Assembly: GCA_017416145.1 (NCBI GenBank)
Contig: JAFQDD010000010.1
Span: 93,036-157,035 of the forward strand
Direction of reading: 5' to 3'
DNA length: 64,000 bases
Source of the DNA: Spirochaetaceae bacterium
Lineage (GTDB): Bacteria; Spirochaetota; Spirochaetia; Treponematales; Treponemataceae
The position numbers were made by a program, and so were the translations under genes. Under the pieces are notes generated by a model. That model was not told the origin of the DNA, did not search any database, and saw nothing but the letters and a program-made list of their open reading frames with translations. This document shows, piece after piece, positions 1 to 39,236 of this stretch. Every line of letters begins with the position of its first letter. Within the stretch, counting starts at the first letter, position 1.

Positions 1-171
1 AGAGAAGAAGCATACGAGGATGGCTTAAACAAGGGATTGCAGCAAGGTGCGTATCAAGAAAAATTGGAAACGGCTAGGATGCTACTTTCATTCGGGGATG
101 CTATAGAAAAAATCGCTACGATTACTGGTTTATCACTAGAAACTCTCCAACGACTTGAAAAGGATTTGTAA
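1..171 (+). CDS. 3' end of an Rpn-family (YhgA-like, PD-(D/E)XK) recombination-promoting nuclease/putative transposase gene. The window begins inside it.
   Basis: Frame 1 reads REEAYEDGLNKGLQQGAYQEKLETARMLLSFGDAIEKIATITGLSLETLQRLEKDL*. This is colinear with the C-terminus of the intact 302-aa Rpn-family ORF at 31559..32467. Confidence 0.6.
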   Translation, partial: REEAYEDGLNKGLQQGAYQEKLETARMLLSFGDAIEKIATITGLSLETLQRLEKDL

Positions 172-185
172 CTGAGGTAGAAAAT

Positions 186-446
186 ATGCTAATGACAGAA
201 TACGATTACGACACAGATATAGCAGTTCAAAGAGAAGAAGCTTACGAAGATGGCTTAAGCAAGGGGTTCCAACAGGGCATATCTCAGGGAATAAGTCAGG
301 GCATAAAACAAGGTGCGTATGAAAAAGCTGTTGAAACGGCTAGGTTGCTACTTTCATTCGGGGATTCTATAGAAAAAATCACTACAATTACTGGTTTATC
401 AGGAGAAACACTCCAACAACTTTCAGAGGATTTGCAACTGAGGTAG
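186..446 (+). CDS. Stand-alone Rpn C-terminal module (RpnS-like small protein, 86 aa). It is the second tandem copy of the 3' segment.
   Basis: It starts MLMTEYDYDTDIAVQREEAYEDGL, identical to the internal Met-Leu-Met of the full-length paralog. GAGG lies 8 nt upstream of the ATG (ctGAGGtagaaaatATG). It carries a 12-aa QGIS/QGIK insertion. The original TAA stop is mutated to CAA, with readthrough to TAG. Confidence 0.55.
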   Translation: MLMTEYDYDTDIAVQREEAYEDGLSKGFQQGISQGISQGIKQGAYEKAVETARLLLSFGDSIEKITTITGLSGETLQQLSEDLQLR

Positions 447-490
447 AAAACATGCTAATGACAGAATATGATTAGGACACAGACATAGCA
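438..490 (+). pseudogene. Third, truncated and decayed copy of the Rpn C-terminal module
   Basis: The sequence ctgaggtagaaaacATGctaatgacagaatatgatTAGgacacagacatagca repeats the unit start but has an in-frame TAG after 7 codons. Confidence 0.6.
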
Positions 491-568
491 TTTTAGATAT
501 TCTTCACGTTTTGCCTCTAGTCTTTTTCAAAAGTAGTTTGTATAATTCCCTTTTAAGGCAAAACTACT

Positions 569-2089
569 ATGACATTTTTTAACATTTTTACTTTGGTTGC
601 AAATACTCTTAATCTCATTTTCATTATTTTTGTACTGTTTTTTGAACGTAAAGAATCAGGTCGTAGATTTGCTTGGCTTCTAGCCTTGGTTTTTCTTCCT
701 GTTGTGGGAATGATTTTGTACATTCTTTGTAGTGGTCACTTTTTCACCTCTACTCGTAAGATGGAAAAAATCCGGAAATACATTTTCAGTATCACAAATC
801 CATTTTTACATCAACAAAAAGAGTTTTATATTGCCAATAAAGAAAAATTAAAAAATCCTTGCATTAAAGATTATGATGATATCGTTCTTATGAATATGCT
901 AAATGCAAATTCAAATATTACTTTTACAGATTCCACAGAAATTTTCACTTGTGGTCACGATATGTTTGAGCAACTATGCAAAGATTTGCTTGAAGCAAAA
1001 GACTTTATCTATATGCAATTTTTTATCTTTCACAACGATGAAATCGGTAAAAAACTTATGGATATTTTGTGCAGAAAAGCAAGAGAAGGAGTTGATGTTA
1101 AACTTTTATATGATGATGTTGGTTCAATTTTGACTCCACTTTTATTTTTCTCAAAACTAGATTTAGCTGGAGGTCAAAGTCTACCATTTTTTCCAGTAAA
1201 AATTGGAGCTCCACTTACCCTAAACTTTAGAAACCACAGAAAAAACGTAATAATCGACGGAAAAGTTGGATATCTTGGAGGAATGAATGTTGGAGACGAA
1301 TACATAATTGGACTACGCAAAAAACTTGCACACCCATGGAGAGATACTCATCTTCGTTTAACAGGAAACTGTATTCTTTCTATGCTGGAAATCTTCTTAA
1401 TAGACTGGCAAAGTTCCGCCTTTGGGAAAAAAGCACTAAAAGCCACAGACAAAGTTCCTCAATATTATCCAATAGAAAGATTTGAAAAATTAAATAAACA
1501 AATATTAGAGGATCTAAAAAATGATATCCCAGGGGATAACAAAATTCCAACTCAGGTAATTGCTTCTGGACCAAACGATTTATACAAATCAGAAATCCGC
1601 GATATGATGATTCGTATGATTATGGATGCAAAAGACTCTATTTTCATACAAACCCCATATTTCACCCCAGACGAAGCCTTTTCCTCTGCCCTAAAAATCG
1701 CTGCCCTTTCTGGAAAAGATATTCGCATTATGGTGCCTGGGAAATGGGATAAAGCTTATGTCAAAGCTGCTGCTATGGAGTTTATCCGTCAAATGATTCC
1801 CTACGGCATAAAGTTTTACGCATATCCAGGTTTTATCCACTCAAAAACTTTAGTTATCGATAAAAAACTTGTTACAATTGGAACAACCAACATAGACACT
1901 AGAAGTTTTGAATTGCATTTTGAGATGAATATCATTTTTTATGATGAAACCTTTGCCAACAAAAATGCAGAAATCTTTTTAGAAGACCAAAAAAAATGTA
2001 CGCTTATTGAAAAAGAAACTTTGGACAAATCTTCCTTCATAAAGCGTACAATTTGGGGTTTTTGCAAACTCTTTTCACCTTTGATGTAA
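569..2089 (+). CDS. cls: Cardiolipin synthase (two PLD/HKD domains)
   Basis: N-terminal TM helices are present. There are two HKD motifs (NHRKNVIIDGKVGYLGGMNVGDEY and IHSKTLVIDKKLVTIGTTNID). Length is 506 aa. Confidence 0.85.
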   Translation: MTFFNIFTLVANTLNLIFIIFVLFFERKESGRRFAWLLALVFLPVVGMILYILCSGHFFTSTRKMEKIRKYIFSITNPFLHQQKEFYIANKEKLKNPCIKDYDDIVLMNMLNANSNITFTDSTEIFTCGHDMFEQLCKDLLEAKDFIYMQFFIFHNDEIGKKLMDILCRKAREGVDVKLLYDDVGSILTPLLFFSKLDLAGGQSLPFFPVKIGAPLTLNFRNHRKNVIIDGKVGYLGGMNVGDEYIIGLRKKLAHPWRDTHLRLTGNCILSMLEIFLIDWQSSAFGKKALKATDKVPQYYPIERFEKLNKQILEDLKNDIPGDNKIPTQVIASGPNDLYKSEIRDMMIRMIMDAKDSIFIQTPYFTPDEAFSSALKIAALSGKDIRIMVPGKWDKAYVKAAAMEFIRQMIPYGIKFYAYPGFIHSKTLVIDKKLVTIGTTNIDTRSFELHFEMNIIFYDETFANKNAEIFLEDQKKCTLIEKETLDKSSFIKRTIWGFCKLFSPLM

Positions 2090-8081: not shown

Positions 8082-10157
8082 GTGAATCAACTTAAACCTG
8101 TTATTTCTGTTATTAAAGAAAAATGCGTAAACTGTCATAAATGTATAGCCGTGTGTCCATCAAAATTTTGTAATGATGGTTCTGGTGATTTTGTTAATAT
8201 TGACCACAATTTGTGTATAGGTTGTGGTGCTTGTATAAAAGCTTGTCCCCACGATGCAAGAATTGGTATAGATGATTTTTCTGATTTTATGAGTGCCCTC
8301 TCTTCAAAAAAAGATGTAGTTGCCATAGTTGCACCAGCTGCAGCTCCAAACTTCCGAGGAAAAGAGTTAGAATTAAACGGATGGCTAAAATCAATTGGTG
8401 TAAAAGCTGTTTTTGATGTTAGCTTCGGTGCAGAATTAACTACAAAATCATATTTAAATTACATAAAAAAAGCAAACCCAAAATTGGTGATTGCACAACC
8501 ATGTCCTGCTTTAGTTAGTTATGTAGAATTGTATCAACCAGATTTGATTCCTTATTTGTCTCCTGCAGATAGCCCAATGGCTCACACAGTTGTGATGATT
8601 CGAGAATTTTTCCCAGAATATGCAAATGCAAAAATCGCTGTCATATCACCTTGTTATGCAAAACGCCGAGAATTTGATGAAAATGGTCGTGGTGATTTTA
8701 ACGTAACGATGGCTTCTATCAGCAAGTATTTTAAAGAGAAAAATATTAATCTTGCTTCATATCCTCCAACAGAATTTACAAATCCTCCAGCAGAAAGAGC
8801 TGTTTTGTATTCAACTCCAGGAGGACTTTTGAGAACCGCAGAGCGATTTAATCCAAAAGTGAAAAATATTACTAGAAAAATCGAAGGACAACCTTTGATG
8901 ACAGAATATTTCCACGAATTGTCCACATCATTAAAAGAAAATAGACACTTACCATACAAATTGATTGACTGTTTGAACTGTGAAAAAGGCTGTAACGGTG
9001 GAGCTGGAACTGTAAATCAAGAATTGCCTTTGGATACTCTTGAAAATTACGTTGAAGAGAGAATGTATAAACAGCGGGATATTTGGAAAAAGAAGTCTTT
9101 TTCACGAAAAAATTGTATGAAAAAGATTAACAAGGCTATTGATAAATATTGGAAAGACGACATTTTTACTCGAAAATACGAAAATCGTGATGTTGTGGCA
9201 AATGGCTTACTAAAAATCCCAACAGAAATGGAATTGCAACAAATTTACACAGATATGGGAAAACGTGAGAAAAAAGATTTCCTAGATTGTGGTGCTTGTG
9301 GATATTCAACTTGTAAAGATATGGCCATTGCAATTTTTAATAACAAAAATAAAAAAGAAAATTGTCATCACTTTTTACTTTCTCAAGTTAGTTCTCTCCA
9401 TGATTCTTTCCAAGCAGAAATGAAGAGTTCTATTAACAATGTAACAAATTCTACATTGCAAAATCTTGATGAAACAAGAGATGGCGTAAACGAATTGACC
9501 CGAATCACAAAAGATATGTCAAATATTGTATCATCATCTTCTTCTGCCATCGAGGAAATGATTGGAAACATTATGTCCATCGAAACTACAATTAAAAAAA
9601 GTGTAGAAGCTGTTGAACAATTGGATATTGCAACTGTTGCTGGAGAAAGTAATTTGTCTGAAGTTAGTACTTTGGTTGAAAAAATCGAAGAAAAATCTCA
9701 GGGTCTTGAAGAGATGAGTAATGTGATTCAGCAAATTTCAGAGCAAACCAACTTGTTGGCTATGAATGCTGCTATCGAAGCTGCTCACGCTGGAGAAAGT
9801 GGAAAAGGTTTCGCGGTTGTTGCTGATGAAATCCGAAAATTGGCAGAAAACTCTGGAACTGAAGCAAAGAAAATCGCTGATGTTTTGGCTGAAATCAAAA
9901 AAATGATTGATGAAGCCTATGATGGTACAGTTTCTACAAAAAAAGAGTTTGATAATATCGTAAAAGGTTCTTCTGAAGTAAAAACTATGGAACTTGAAAT
10001 AAAAGACGCCATTGCAGAACAAAACAATGGTGGAAAACTGATATTACAAGCTGTTTCCAAACTAAAAGATTCTGAACAAGCTGTTGTAGTTGCATCAAAA
10101 CAACTTGCAGAAACAGAAGAACGAGTACGGGAAGCAATTCGGTCTTTGGCTTTGTAA
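8082..10157 (+). CDS. Cytoplasmic methyl-accepting chemotaxis protein with an N-terminal 2x[4Fe-4S] ferredoxin plus [FeFe]-hydrogenase-like (H-cluster domain) sensor
   Basis: Two CxxCxxCxxxCP motifs are present ([24 protein letters not shown]). Hydrogenase large-subunit-like motifs are [14 protein letters not shown] and [14 protein letters not shown]. The C-terminus has the MCP signalling hairpin [32 protein letters not shown]. No TM segments are evident. It has a GTG start preceded by GAGGTGA. Confidence 0.8.
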
Positions 10158-10978: not shown

Positions 10979-11225
10979 TAGTATTTGCCTTGTGCAAATT
11001 TGAATTGAAAAGTAGATCCATTTTCAAGTTTTTGAAATAAAAGGCTTGGAAATAACAATTATGATAATAGAATGAAAATCCAGAGTTTTTTGAAATATGA
11101 TTCAATAAACTTTAAATTATGACCTATATATTTATCAGCCTTGTGCTGGAAAAATTGAAGATGTTTTTATAAAAACTGTTTTAACCTTAGAAATGTCCAA
11201 AGCCAAACCGTGTAAAACAGTGAAA

Positions 11226-11265
11226 AGTGTACCTCCGAAAGTGTGAAGGGGGTACACTTTTTTTG
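11226..11265 (+). terminator. Intrinsic terminator-like hairpin downstream of the HU-like gene
   Basis: AAGTGTACC...GGTACACTT is followed by a T7 run. Confidence 0.55.
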
Positions 11266-11282
11266 TATGTGGGGGGGGGTGT

Positions 11283-12738
11283 TTTATTTGTAGTTCGGTT
11301 GTGAAGGTGCGACCGAGTTTGGAGGAACAAAAATGTCAGAAGCCGAGTTTCAATTCACGCACCCGTGAAGGTGCGACGGTCTACACGACAGTTAAGACAA
11401 TACCCACAAGGTTTCAATTCACGCACCCGTGAAGGTGCGACTCTAGGAATGAAGATCATTTATCAAAAGAGAGGTGTTTCAATTCACGCACCCGTGAAGG
11501 TGCGACACACTTTTATAAATCTTGTTGCTAAGCACAAAAGTTTCAATTCACGCACCCGTGAAGGTGCGACACAAAAGAAAACTAGAACTAAGAGATGTAA
11601 TTAGTTTCAATTCACGCACCCGTGAAGGTGCGACGAAAAAAAAGATGTTGATATTATCCACAAACCAGTTTCAATTCACGCACCCGTGAAGGTGCGACAC
11701 CATGCCATGCTCCTAGCTCAAAGTTGCCACGTTGTTTCAATTCACGCACCCGTGAAGGTGCGACAGTACTAGAAGCTGTTAAGCGTGATGGCATTTCAGT
11801 TTCAATTCACGCACCCGTGAAGGTGCGACTTATTGATGAATGTTTCTCTCAAAAAGAGTTAGATGTTTCAATTCACGCACCCGTGAAGGTGCGACTCTTC
11901 AATAGTGTCTTTAGCATCTTTACAAAGTGTTTCAATTCACGCACCCGTGAAGGTGCGACTGAAAATCTTAAACTCCGTAAGCTTTCAGATACAGTTTCAA
12001 TTCACGCACCCGTGAAGGTGCGACAAAACCCCTATTGACTTAAAACCAATGATAGAAGTTTCAATTCACGCACCCGTGAAGGTGCGACGTTAATGTTTGA
12101 TGTTCAGCTAATAGTTGTCTGTTTCAATTCACGCACCCGTGAAGGTGCGACGTTCTTTTGTTAAAATGTTTACGCTTTTACTTTTTGTTTCAATTCACGC
12201 ACCCGTGAAGGTGCGACATTGAAAGTACATCTTCACGCCCATATACACTATGTTTCAATTCACGCACCCGTGAAGGTGCGACAAATGCGTTTTAATTTTT
12301 CTGTTGAATCAGCTCTTGTTTCAATTCACGCACCCGTGAAGGTGCGACGTGCCATTGCTTGACATACATGATATGGAGTAAAGTTTCAATTCACGCACCC
12401 GTGAAGGTGCGACTTATTTGTTCGTTTACATATCCATTTAAATAAAATGTTTCAATTCACGCACCCGTGAAGGTGCGACATATATCAAGGTAGGAATAAA
12501 CAATAAAATATATGTTTCAATTCACGCACCCGTGAAGGTGCGACGTTTAAAGAGAGCAATAGATCTTGCTCAATACAGTTTCAATTCACGCACCCGTGAA
12601 GGTGCGACGGTGTTTTGTTATCATCTAACCAAGGCATACATTGTTTCAATTCACGCACCCGTGAAGGTGCGACTGGACAAACAGCCATATTAAAAAAAAC
12701 TAAAAGAGTTTCAATTCACGCACCCGTGAAGGTGCGAC
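11283..12738 (-). CRISPR. Type I-C CRISPR array: 22 identical 31-nt repeats, 32-35 nt spacers, plus one degenerate terminal repeat at the leader-distal end
   Basis: The plus-strand repeat is gtttcaattcacgcacccgtgaaggtgcgac. On the minus strand it reads GTCGCACCTTCACGGGTGCGTGAATTGAAAC, the I-C-type ...ATTGAAAC end. The first repeat is at 11347..11377 and the last at 12708..12738. The degenerate copy at 11283..11313 keeps only gtgaaggtgcgac. The cas2-proximal AT-rich leader sets the transcription direction to minus. Confidence 0.97.
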
Positions 12739-31326: not shown

Positions 31327-31558
31327 CTTGCCATCATTCTATCATTTTTTCAAACTATTGACAATATGACATTCAGTGCTTTTTTGTCAATTTGATATAT
31401 TTTTTCGGATTCTTATGGGTGATTTCGTGATAATAGTTGATTTAGTTAATGTTTCATATAAAAAAAACCGCCATTAGAAAAGAATAAATCTTTCCTTTGT
31501 GCGGTTTTCACTAAAATGATTCTATGCAAATTACTTAATTTTATGTTTTCTACCTCGG

Positions 31559-32467
31559 CTACAAATCCTTTTCAAGTTGTTGGAGTGTTTCTAGTGATAA
31601 ACCAGTAACAGTTGAGATTTGTTCAATAGAAAGTCCTAGGTGAAAAAGATTTTTAGCCGTTTCAACAGCTTTTTCATACGCACCTTGCTTTATGCCCTGT
31701 TGAAGGCCCTTGCTTAAGCCATCTTCGTAAGCTTCTTCTCTTTGTACTGCTATATCTGTGTCGTAATCGTATTCTGTCATTAGCATATTTTCTACCTCAG
31801 TTGATTTTCTTGCTAAGTAGTCGGACAAAAACCCTTCTTTTATCGCTTTCGATATCGCTGTTGTAAATGGGTCATCTGTGCCAGAGTCGATGGATTTTCT
31901 TACCAATTCTATAAACTCTGAATATTGGTCTAAAATCTTACAGCGTTTTAAGATAGGATTTCCTTTATCTACATTAATATTAACAACTTTTACTGTAATT
32001 TCAAGTGGAAAATTTGCTAAATCAGCTGAAAATGCCTTTTCTGGAAGCATAAAAGCGTCGGAGAGTTTTAGTGTTTTTTCTAGTGGAAAGTCCTCTTTTC
32101 CGTTGTAGAAAACGTAGAATTCTGGAAGGGGGATTTTCACAAGTTTCTTTCCGAACTTATTCTTTGTTTTCACAACTTTTTCGTAGATACGTGCGATGTA
32201 TTCCAAAATACGAAATGGCATATTTTCATTTATCGTGGATTGATGCTCAATTAAAACGACGATTTTATTATCGATAAGCATTGCGATGTCGTTGTAATAT
32301 TTCATATACAAAACTTGCTCAATCATAACAGGTTTTACTTCTGTGGTCTTGTAATCAAGGTTTGTTTCGTGCAATGCGTTATAAAGCGAAACAAAGTTTT
32401 CCTTCGCGGTAATGTCCTTTGCAAACAAATCCACAAAGACAGAATCTTTGTAATTACGATTTTTCAT
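31559..32467 (-). CDS. Rpn-family (YhgA-like, PD-(D/E)XK) recombination-promoting nuclease/putative transposase, intact, 302 aa
   Basis: YKDSVFVDLF... and VVLIEHQST motifs are present. The C-terminal module is nearly identical to the tandem copies at 1..490. An internal in-frame ATG at 31786 has GAGG 8 nt upstream. Confidence 0.8.
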   Translation of the reverse strand: MKNRNYKDSVFVDLFAKDITAKENFVSLYNALHETNLDYKTTEVKPVMIEQVLYMKYYNDIAMLIDNKIVVLIEHQSTINENMPFRILEYIARIYEKVVKTKNKFGKKLVKIPLPEFYVFYNGKEDFPLEKTLKLSDAFMLPEKAFSADLANFPLEITVKVVNINVDKGNPILKRCKILDQYSEFIELVRKSIDSGTDDPFTTAISKAIKEGFLSDYLARKSTEVENMLMTEYDYDTDIAVQREEAYEDGLSKGLQQGIKQGAYEKAVETAKNLFHLGLSIEQISTVTGLSLETLQQLEKDL

Positions 32468-32697
32468 ATTCCTTTCTCCAAAAGTTCTTTTTGTAGAGAA
32501 AAATCTAAACGCTGAATCCCAAGTTTTTCACTAAAAGCTAAATATCCTTGAGAAAAAATCTCCAGTTTTAAAACCGTTCTGAATTCTGAATTCCGAATCC
32601 TGAATTTCCCTACATATACTTATATGTTTTGAATTTCAAAAATTTTGAATAAATTCGGGGAAAAAGTGAAAAAAAGTAAAAAAAATTTCAGAAAATG

Positions 32698-32941
32698 TCA
32701 CGCGGAAAAATCGCTGACGCTATTCGGACTAACGTCCTCATTTTTTTGAACTTATGATGTTTATCATACTTTTGCTGTTAAGCAAAAGGCGTTAGCAATT
32801 AACCCGTGTGACGCAATTTTTTTTGCCAAGGAGATTTGTGGTTTGCTAACGCACTCCACTACTTTACGTGAAGGACGTTAGTCCTGAACAAATCTGCGTG
32901 GCACTTTTTGCAATTAAGCAAAATGCGTTAGCAAGAGAACC
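32698..32941. repeat. Cluster of short dispersed GC-richer repeats and hairpins (GGACTAACGTCC family and AAGCAAAAKGCGTTAGCA family)
   Basis: The segment at 32698..32740 and the reverse complement of 32822..32905 are related to each other and to 39153..39236. Direct repeats lie at 32772..32805 and 32908..32941. Confidence 0.65.
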
Positions 32942-39148: not shown

Positions 39149-39152
39149 AGGC

Positions 39153-39236
39153 AAATGCCACACGGATTTGTTCAGGACTAACGTCCTTCTCCTAGTGCCT
39201 CCACCCAGAGCAAGTGCAAATCCCCGTATGACAAAA
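39153..39236 (+). repeat. Dispersed repeat copy (GGACTAACGTCC family)
   Basis: The sequence tgccacacggatttgttcaggactaacgtccttc... matches the reverse complement of 32868..32905 nearly base for base. Weaker similarity continues for about 45 nt more. Confidence 0.65.

Follow-up and report, generated by a model that had tools for sequence, protein, structure and literature searches.

The DNA analysed here, a 64,000-nucleotide stretch of contig JAFQDD010000010.1 from Spirochaetaceae bacterium (the window), begins with the 3′ end of an Rpn nuclease gene, followed on the same strand by a second copy of its C-terminal module and the start of a third. This raises the question of what a free-standing module does directly behind the gene whose end it resembles. 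Zhong et al. reported in 2023 that RpnS proteins are encoded either inside rpn genes or by genes of their own, and that the E. coli RpnS dimerises through its repeat-bearing helix, binds RpnL, and blocks it (PMC10400941); an earlier note on the window had correctly described RpnS as small proteins translated from internal starts that neutralise the toxic Rpn nucleases. We consider it probable that the locus consists of the 3′ end of an RpnL/RpnS defence gene of the toxin–antitoxin type, then a stand-alone RpnSs gene, then a dead stub. Since the internal start region and the module are repeated directly after the rpn stop codon, the second module forms a separate 86-aa open reading frame, here called ORF2, with the same start signals.

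Architecture of the Locus

Positions 1–171 (plus strand) cover the final 56 codons and the TAA stop (169–171) of rpnL, an intact Rpn nuclease gene in a spirochaete of the ruminant gut. The frame 1 translation of this segment is REEAYEDGLNKGLQQGAYQEKLETARMLLSFGDAIEKIATITGLSLETLQRLEKDL followed by the stop, running from REEAYEDGL to LEKDL. The junction between modules 1 and 2 (171–185, plus strand) repeats the internal start region as ACTGAGGTAGAAAAT and carries a Shine–Dalgarno GAGG at 174–177, 8 nt before an ATG. This ATG (186–188) opens ORF2 (186–446, plus strand), an intact stand-alone RpnS-like frame of the RpnSs type. Where the first copy has its TAA, ORF2 has CAA (435–437), and it closes at the TAG at 444–446, which lies inside the next GAGGTAG. 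Alignment of the copies places an insertion of 36 nt relative to module 1 at 271–306 (plus strand), corresponding to three extra 4-residue repeats with a 12-nt period; since the sequence is repetitive, the insertion cannot be placed exactly, and Tandem Repeats Finder (TRF) delimits 2.8 copies of period 12 at 273–306. The description of the second copy in the earlier note, as an intact 86-aa frame with a 12-residue insertion and a stop-to-CAA change, agrees with these observations, as does its placing of GAGG 8 nt before an ATG that is in frame with the parental protein.

The third module start (437–490, plus strand) has its Shine–Dalgarno sequence at 440–443 and its ATG at 452–454, runs into a premature TAG at 473–475, and loses homology at about 490. 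It is a decaying remnant, a dead stub. The TAG to which its loss had been ascribed is thus present, and the copy is truncated as well. This stop is a recent point change: a related strain has C at position 475, giving TAC.

Direct repeats relate 32–227 to 298–493 (196 nt, 85% identity) and 1–47 to 231–277 (85%). A unit of roughly 270 nt, present 2.2 times in tandem, had been proposed; the copies lie at or within a few bases of where they had been placed, whereas the unit has a length of 230 nt in rpnL and of 266 nt in the second copy. As 230 is not divisible by 3, the period is out of frame. We also considered a programmed frameshift or a read-through that would join modules 1 and 2, and rejected both: in frame, the junction runs TAA CTG AGG TAG, and ORF2 lies in the +2 frame. 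A scan of the window for the start motif GAGGTAGAAAAYATGCTAATGAC gave three matches (174–196, 440–462, and, within a second Rpn paralogue, 31776–31798 on the minus strand) against 0.01 expected by chance, and a fourth copy lies inside the parent gene, 45 nt upstream of the window.

Promoter and terminator scans of the locus returned matches at chance level only, and an Rfam search of it gave no match. A TTGAAA-16-TAATAT site about 190 nt before the internal start was noted among these; it carries no evidential weight.

The Upstream Gene and Its Internal Start

Sequence upstream of the window was reached through an exact-protein look-up of the adjoining cardiolipin-synthase-like gene (cls, window 569–2089), which gave three assemblies. 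All three contain the whole of rpnL. In one of them (L001), which shares 12,089 nt with the window at 100% identity and in which window position 1 corresponds to 9433, the gene encodes 298 aa at 8707–9603. It is accordingly not the bare pseudogene remnant that the earlier note had allowed for. The protein scores 65.0 bits against TIGR01784 (Rpn family recombination-promoting nuclease/putative transposase; curated cut-off 52.1 bits) over profile positions 3–273, and 35.2 bits against PF04754 (cut-off 21). An end-to-end alignment with E. coli RpnE brings the D...IEHQS motifs of the two proteins into register. By inspection, a candidate PD-(D/E)XK motif can be read as YYNDIAMLID...VVLIEHQS, opposite YYSDVLWSV...YCVIEHQS of RpnE, which is annotated as inactive. 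By its full-length profile match, the upstream gene belongs to the Rpn family (TIGR01784/PF04754), as had been supposed from its 3′ end.

A second full-length Rpn paralogue of 302 aa lies at 31559–32467 on the minus strand. It is 90.7% identical to rpnL (62.4 bits against TIGR01784) and has the same internal Shine–Dalgarno sequence and ATG (ATG at 31786–31784), together with a different helix-turn-helix (HTH) allele. Both paralogues share a 1.39-kb unit that extends from about 420 nt upstream of the start codon to 16 nt past the stop. The 3′ end of this unit, directly after the stop of paralogue 2, is a 16-nt vestige of a next module start, CCGAGGTAGAAAACAT (31543–31558, minus strand). The nuclease domain has a dN/dS of 0.06–0.08, and the C-terminal modules have values of 0.3–0.5.

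Inside rpnL, at L001 9373, lies ACTGAGGTAGAAAATATG, with GAGG 8 nt before an ATG that is codon 228 of the gene and in frame with it (L001 9388, gene start 8707). This internal start is located 45 nt before the window; the RpnS predicted from it has 71 aa, the last 56 of which are encoded within the window. We compared the region in 14 full-length genes of two phyla, taken from Treponema, Spirochaetaceae, Roseburia, Oliverpabstia, Lachnospiraceae, and Dysosmobacter loci. In all 14, the module ATG is preceded by GAG GTn nnn AAy, which places GAGGT 8 nt upstream. The Glu codon at the Shine–Dalgarno position is GAG in every one of them, although GAG makes up only 27% of all Glu codons in these genes (range 10–45%). 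Even when only about 8 independent lineages are counted, fixation of GAG at this position despite such usage points to strong synonymous constraint, as expected for a Shine–Dalgarno sequence. Judged by its codons, the module start inside rpnL has the features of a putative internal translation start that is conserved across phyla.

Predicted Product of ORF2

The ORF2 protein begins with 24 family-invariant residues, continues with four 4-residue units (GFQQ GISQ GISQ GIKQ), and ends in an HTH-like bundle. It matches the C-terminal end of TIGR01784 (profile positions 216–273, E = 8e-7). When the peptides of 56 and 86 aa were scanned against Pfam, the only matches were HTH models below threshold, and a dedicated family, PF27070 (HTH_Rpn_C), is seen in precomputed annotations. 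PADLOC has no Rpn model, and the sole ORF2 match there is to a candidate model of 90 aa labelled "putative invertase".

An AlphaFold model of ORF2, built from an alignment of 42 relatives, has helices at residues 10–57, 62–69, and 73–85, with a pLDDT of about 90 over the last 40 residues and 50–62 in the N-terminal half. A Foldseek search against the PDB related the model to 7TH0, E. coli RpnA-S, with a probability of 1.00 and a target-normalised TM score of 0.86. The two superpose with an rmsd of 0.8 Å over 42 columns, and a weak direct sequence match covers the same residues. ORF2 is predicted from this model to fold like RpnA-S, as a three-helix bundle with a long first helix. In both proteins the bundle is compact and C-terminal and the repeats are carried on the long first helix, into which the 4-residue repeats of ORF2 fall. 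Identity between them is about 31% over 42 residues, and ORF2 is a stand-alone protein of 86 aa compared with about 49 aa for RpnA-S. RpnA-S is translated from an internal start, whereas internal translation in the spirochaete gene is predicted. We propose that ORF2 would encode a helical dimerisation protein of the RpnS type, with a first helix 12 residues longer than the one encoded by the neighbouring gene.

As for expression, ORF2 may share a transcript with rpn, and its translation may begin either at its own Shine–Dalgarno sequence or, 15 nt beyond the rpn stop, by re-initiation. Metatranscriptome unitigs of bovine and other gut origin contain sequences of the module family, among them a CAA-type junction; these matches are at the level of the family rather than of the locus, and the samples may contain DNA.

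Stand-Alone Modules in Other Genomes

ORF2 is a separate small open reading frame on the same strand, downstream of rpn, which starts with a copy of the internal start, and is in this sense an RpnSs. At E ≤ 0.001 its homologues number 909, and the best 120 among them are nearly all open reading frames of 69–102 aa from gut metagenomes, with a few named "Spirochaetaceae bacterium". The stand-alone homologues all open with MLMTEYDYDTDIAVQREEAYEDGL. Repeats begin at residue 27 of the module, after the invariant leader of 24 residues, and the repeat region comprises 1 + 4n residues, with n from 0 to 8, in 150 of 150 sequences; length changes only in multiples of 12 nt. The repeats are followed by one of at least four HTH alleles and by several types of tail. 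Some of these tails end in DLQLR or DLQPR and have the same origin as that of ORF2, namely a stop changed to CAA and an end in the TAG of the next GAGGTAG.

At E ≤ 1e-20 there are 4,969 full-length relatives, which draw on the same pool of modules. A few of them (P0133, P0156, P0158, and P0160) have two or three modules fused in frame. At 7 distinct loci in spirochaetes, a full-length Rpn gene is immediately followed by small open reading frames of this kind. Another 2 loci (L006 and L053) contain the small frame, with the upstream gene cut off by the end of the contig. The array at L007 contains three complete modules. At least three different types of junction occur among the loci, which points to a recurrent origin of the arrangement. 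Pairs of a full-length gene and a downstream module are also found in Treponemataceae and Xenorhabdus genomes. Two pattern scans of metagenomes, which looked for further copies of the exact locus or for further arrays, yielded 0 and 2 short contigs. DNA unitigs are interrupted within the repeats.

Comparison with E. coli

Downstream copies of this kind have already been described in E. coli: ypaA (rpnESs) follows rpnE, and in some strains rpnCSs follows rpnC (PMC10400941). The same study inferred that such copies arose independently and recurrently, and reported that they are lost by deletion or fusion and that RpnS proteins vary in the number of their 4-residue repeats, which start 8–20 residues after the Met (PMC10400941). 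We checked the arrangement in E. coli K-12, where AAAAGGAGAGATTAATGACT occurs inside rpnE and again right after the rpnE stop as the start of ypaA. Compared with the rpnE module, ypaA is longer by 12 bases, or one 4-residue repeat. The anatomy is the same as in the spirochaete: an in-frame internal Shine–Dalgarno sequence and ATG, repeated with the module after the stop and on the same strand, and a copy that differs from its parent by whole 4-residue repeats, one more in ypaA and three more in ORF2. Given this agreement and the published description, the spirochaete locus is an example of a known system and not of a new kind (PMC10400941). The stand-alone copy, which the earlier note had put forward as a new idea, therefore has a precedent.

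Several differences are nevertheless apparent. The period is 183 nt in rpnE–ypaA, as opposed to an out-of-frame 230 nt in the spirochaete. Unlike a plain duplicate, ORF2 is a mosaic of two paralogue types (see below), and it is followed by a truncated third start. Spirochaete arrays reach three complete modules, and two or three modules may be fused in frame. The spirochaete repeats begin at residue 27, further from the Met than in the RpnS proteins of Zhong et al. Recurrent origin is suggested in both groups, in the spirochaetes by the three junction types. What is new here is the setting in an uncultured spirochaete lineage of the ruminant gut, the scale of the family, the arrays of up to three modules and the in-frame multi-module proteins, as well as the mosaic rather than in-situ origin of ORF2, the invariant 24-residue leader, and the cross-phylum codon evidence for the internal start. 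The RpnL/RpnS/RpnSs architecture is thereby extended from E. coli to uncultured gut spirochaetes, in which the family is highly expanded (30–57 times the single-copy depth for module-start words), and comparative support is added for the internal start as a conserved, selected feature across phyla.

Possible Roles of ORF2

The number of repeats bears on the choice of partner. There are four units in ORF2, compared with one in the upstream gene and two in paralogue 2. For E. coli RpnC, neutralisation was abolished when a single repeat was added to just one of the partners (PMC10400941). If repeat number sets specificity in the spirochaete as it does in this single RpnC experiment, the three additional repeats of ORF2 mean that it probably does not neutralise the upstream RpnL. 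A mismatch between neighbours is not peculiar to the window: of the 6 distinct spirochaete loci examined that retain a full-length gene together with its stand-alone partner, 4 show a difference in repeat number between the two, as does rpnE–ypaA. We propose that ORF2 would more likely pair with another Rpn of matching repeat number, or serve as an exchangeable module for the full-length gene.

An extra dose of antitoxin, by which ORF2 neutralises its own upstream RpnL in spite of the different repeat number, is unlikely in the light of this mismatch and of the RpnC result. Such a role would suit the position of ORF2, which follows rpn immediately and in the same orientation, no terminator-like site having been found between the rpn stop and the ORF2 start. 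It would also fit the HTH allele class (SFGD) that ORF2 shares with the upstream module, the equal repeat number of the full-length and stand-alone modules at the orthologous locus L046, and the synthesis of RpnESs in E. coli (PMC10400941). Weighing these points, we would rank ORF2 as an antitoxin of its neighbour below both a partner of another Rpn and an exchangeable module. Among the readings offered in the earlier note (an extra antitoxin, a decoy, or a record of rapid diversification), the extra antitoxin for the upstream gene appears to be the least likely.

The age of the arrangement can be judged from the orthologous locus of a diverged relative (L046, L048), in which an RRM gene, an Rpn gene, a small open reading frame, and cls follow one another, with flanks about 86% identical to those of the window. 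It contains the same three parts, and the third start is truncated at the same end point, with an independent stop of its own. The three-part layout therefore predates a cls divergence of dS 0.77. ORF2 and its orthologue are both intact, and the differences between them are the 36-nt repeat block and the tail. Over the same divergence, the 14-codon third stub has gained two independent stops. Such persistence argues against ORF2 being a non-functional by-product of unequal recombination, that is, a young pseudogene which is open by chance or through gene conversion. The same can be said of the hundreds of intact stand-alone homologues that keep the Shine–Dalgarno sequence and ATG, of the restriction of length changes to multiples of 12 nt, and of the first 24 codons, which show 9 synonymous variants and 1 amino-acid variant in stand-alone modules, compared with 10 and 0 in full-length ones.

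Other observations are what a pseudogene would be expected to show. The adjoining third copy is clearly decaying, NCBI annotates ypaA as a pseudogene, and the dN/dS of ORF2 relative to its orthologue (0.36–0.52, based on 17–23 changes) is not significantly below 1 (p = 0.05–0.09). Synonymous divergence is 0.18 for ORF2 and 0.18–0.34 for the Rpn parts, far below the 0.77 of the flank, which indicates that gene conversion among the modules is active. The intactness of ORF2 could thus reflect passive upkeep by conversion from selected full-length modules, and not selection on ORF2 itself. Taking both sets of observations together, we regard a pseudogene as quite improbable. An origin of the tandem structure in misassembly, by false joining of a repeat from a multi-copy family, can be set aside with near certainty: module-start words are 30–57 times deeper than the single-copy flank in gut metagenomes and Logan contigs break at 439–445, but the structure of window 1–490 is identical in three independent assemblies spanning both flanks (L001, L002, and L003), the same layout is present at the orthologous locus in four further assemblies of another lineage, and the tandem copies differ from each other by 15% and so are not collapsed or expanded duplicates.

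Proposed Recombination among Modules

The stand-alone RpnSs gene is not a plain copy of the module in front of it. Codons 1–52 of ORF2 are closer to paralogue 2 than to the upstream gene (5 versus 15 differences), whereas codons 53–86 are closer to the upstream gene (11 versus 25), a contrast that is significant in a Fisher test (p = 0.002). ORF2 is a mosaic, with a 5′ half of the paralogue 2 type and an HTH part of the upstream type. In a test of in-situ origin it did not cluster with the C-terminal module of its own upstream gene alone.

We propose that modules are gained, lost, and exchanged by homologous recombination, for which the near-invariant module starts (the Shine–Dalgarno sequence and the first 24 codons) and the conserved module ends would provide the homology arms. 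Every combination of linker and HTH allele is present in the population, and full-length and stand-alone modules differ in HTH allele at the majority of the other loci. How downstream copies are generated and how repeats expand was posed by Zhong et al. just as open questions (PMC10400941). The repeat mismatches, mosaic alleles, and strain-level conversion tracts of the spirochaetes constitute a natural data set on the generation and exchange of modules and on the role of the downstream copies.

A bolder possibility is that the tandem modules behind Rpn genes act as a store of cassettes for programmed diversification of a defence nuclease, an idea that we consider doubtful. Were it true, recombination between the arms would swap, add, or delete modules and thereby re-set the repeat number and HTH allele of the nuclease; repeat-mismatched proteins of the ORF2 type would then be a non-cognate stock or cross-regulators of other Rpn paralogues. 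Neisseria pilE/pilS and Borrelia vlsE are diversification systems that use silent cassettes. They have in common with the spirochaete arrays variable segments with conserved flanks, a tandem position beside an expressed gene, and mosaic alleles. Unlike those cassettes, the Rpn modules keep their own start signals and are probably expressed, and we take the resemblance as a lead only.

Exchange at the level of strains is illustrated by a comparison of L046 with L049, the flanks of which are otherwise near-identical. In L049, the 3′ tail of the full-length gene and the junction behind it have been replaced by the stand-alone type. The orthologous full-length gene also has a different HTH allele from the gene at the window, while the stand-alone modules of the two loci are alike.

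Comparison of the orthologous locus in L001, an assembly with the whole upstream Rpn gene, and L046, a diverged relative, gave synonymous divergences of 0.77 for the cardiolipin-synthase-like gene cls, 0.34 for the Rpn nuclease domain and 0.18 for the stand-alone ORF. Either the Rpn unit is of more recent origin than its flanks, or conversion with other copies homogenises it.

The Rpn genes travel together with some 420 nt of non-coding sequence lying 5′ of them, and copies of this element were found at five loci: window 32468-32933 (−), L001 8285-8706 and, at three further loci, L007 2602-2998, L051 1112-1504 and L054 1067-1444. The copies are about 85% identical overall, with some 200 nt almost without change, and the element is thus more conserved than the synonymous sites of the Rpn gene itself. 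It contains GCTAACG/CGTTAGC in both orientations as well as T-runs, and its predicted RNA folding has a z-score of −6.3 relative to shuffled sequences. No Rfam match and no conserved ORF were found for the element, and no covariation was detected among its copies, which are too alike. At the orthologous locus in L046, the element is partly deleted. A lone copy of about 45 nt of this element, GCCACACGGATTTGTTCAGGACTAACGTCCTTC, lies at window 39149-39190 (+), in an intergenic gap distant from every Rpn gene, which points to a small dispersed repeat.

The conserved words of the module start are over-represented in sheep and other gut metagenomes. When the depth of window 177-220 (module start) was compared with that of 485-1300 (single-copy flank) in runs X1, X4, X5 and X17, the former was 30-57 times higher, which puts the module family at tens of copies for every genome equivalent that the source organism contributes, possibly spread across several species. 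Among the full-length Rpn relatives are proteins that contain in-frame fusions of two or three C-terminal modules (P0133, 436 aa; P0156, 361 aa; P0158 and P0160, 356 aa). In these proteins the modules are separated by short linkers, and the later ones begin with TEYDYDTD, without a Met. In further genomes, the full-length Rpn gene is followed by a separate second ORF bearing the C-terminal module, as in Xenorhabdus mauleonii (L024, 2499-3171), X. szentirmaii (L029, 2432-3192) and two Treponemataceae loci (L012 and L020).

The Rpn tail and stand-alone ORF are followed, some 11 kb downstream, by genes for CRISPR Cas2 and Cas1 (window about 11514-12089 (−), corresponding to 11076-11651 of locus L004), which places the Rpn locus in the wider neighbourhood of another defence system. 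The stand-alone ORF itself (window 186-446) is matched by the PADLOC candidate model PDLC01084 (90 aa, 'C3a178 putative invertase'; E = 1.3e-6), which may represent an unrecognised stand-alone RpnS family within a candidate defence system.

Immediately 3′ of the dead third module, cls probably has its own promoter, because an extended −10-like sequence, TGTATAAT (window 538-568), is found about 22 nt 5′ of its start codon.
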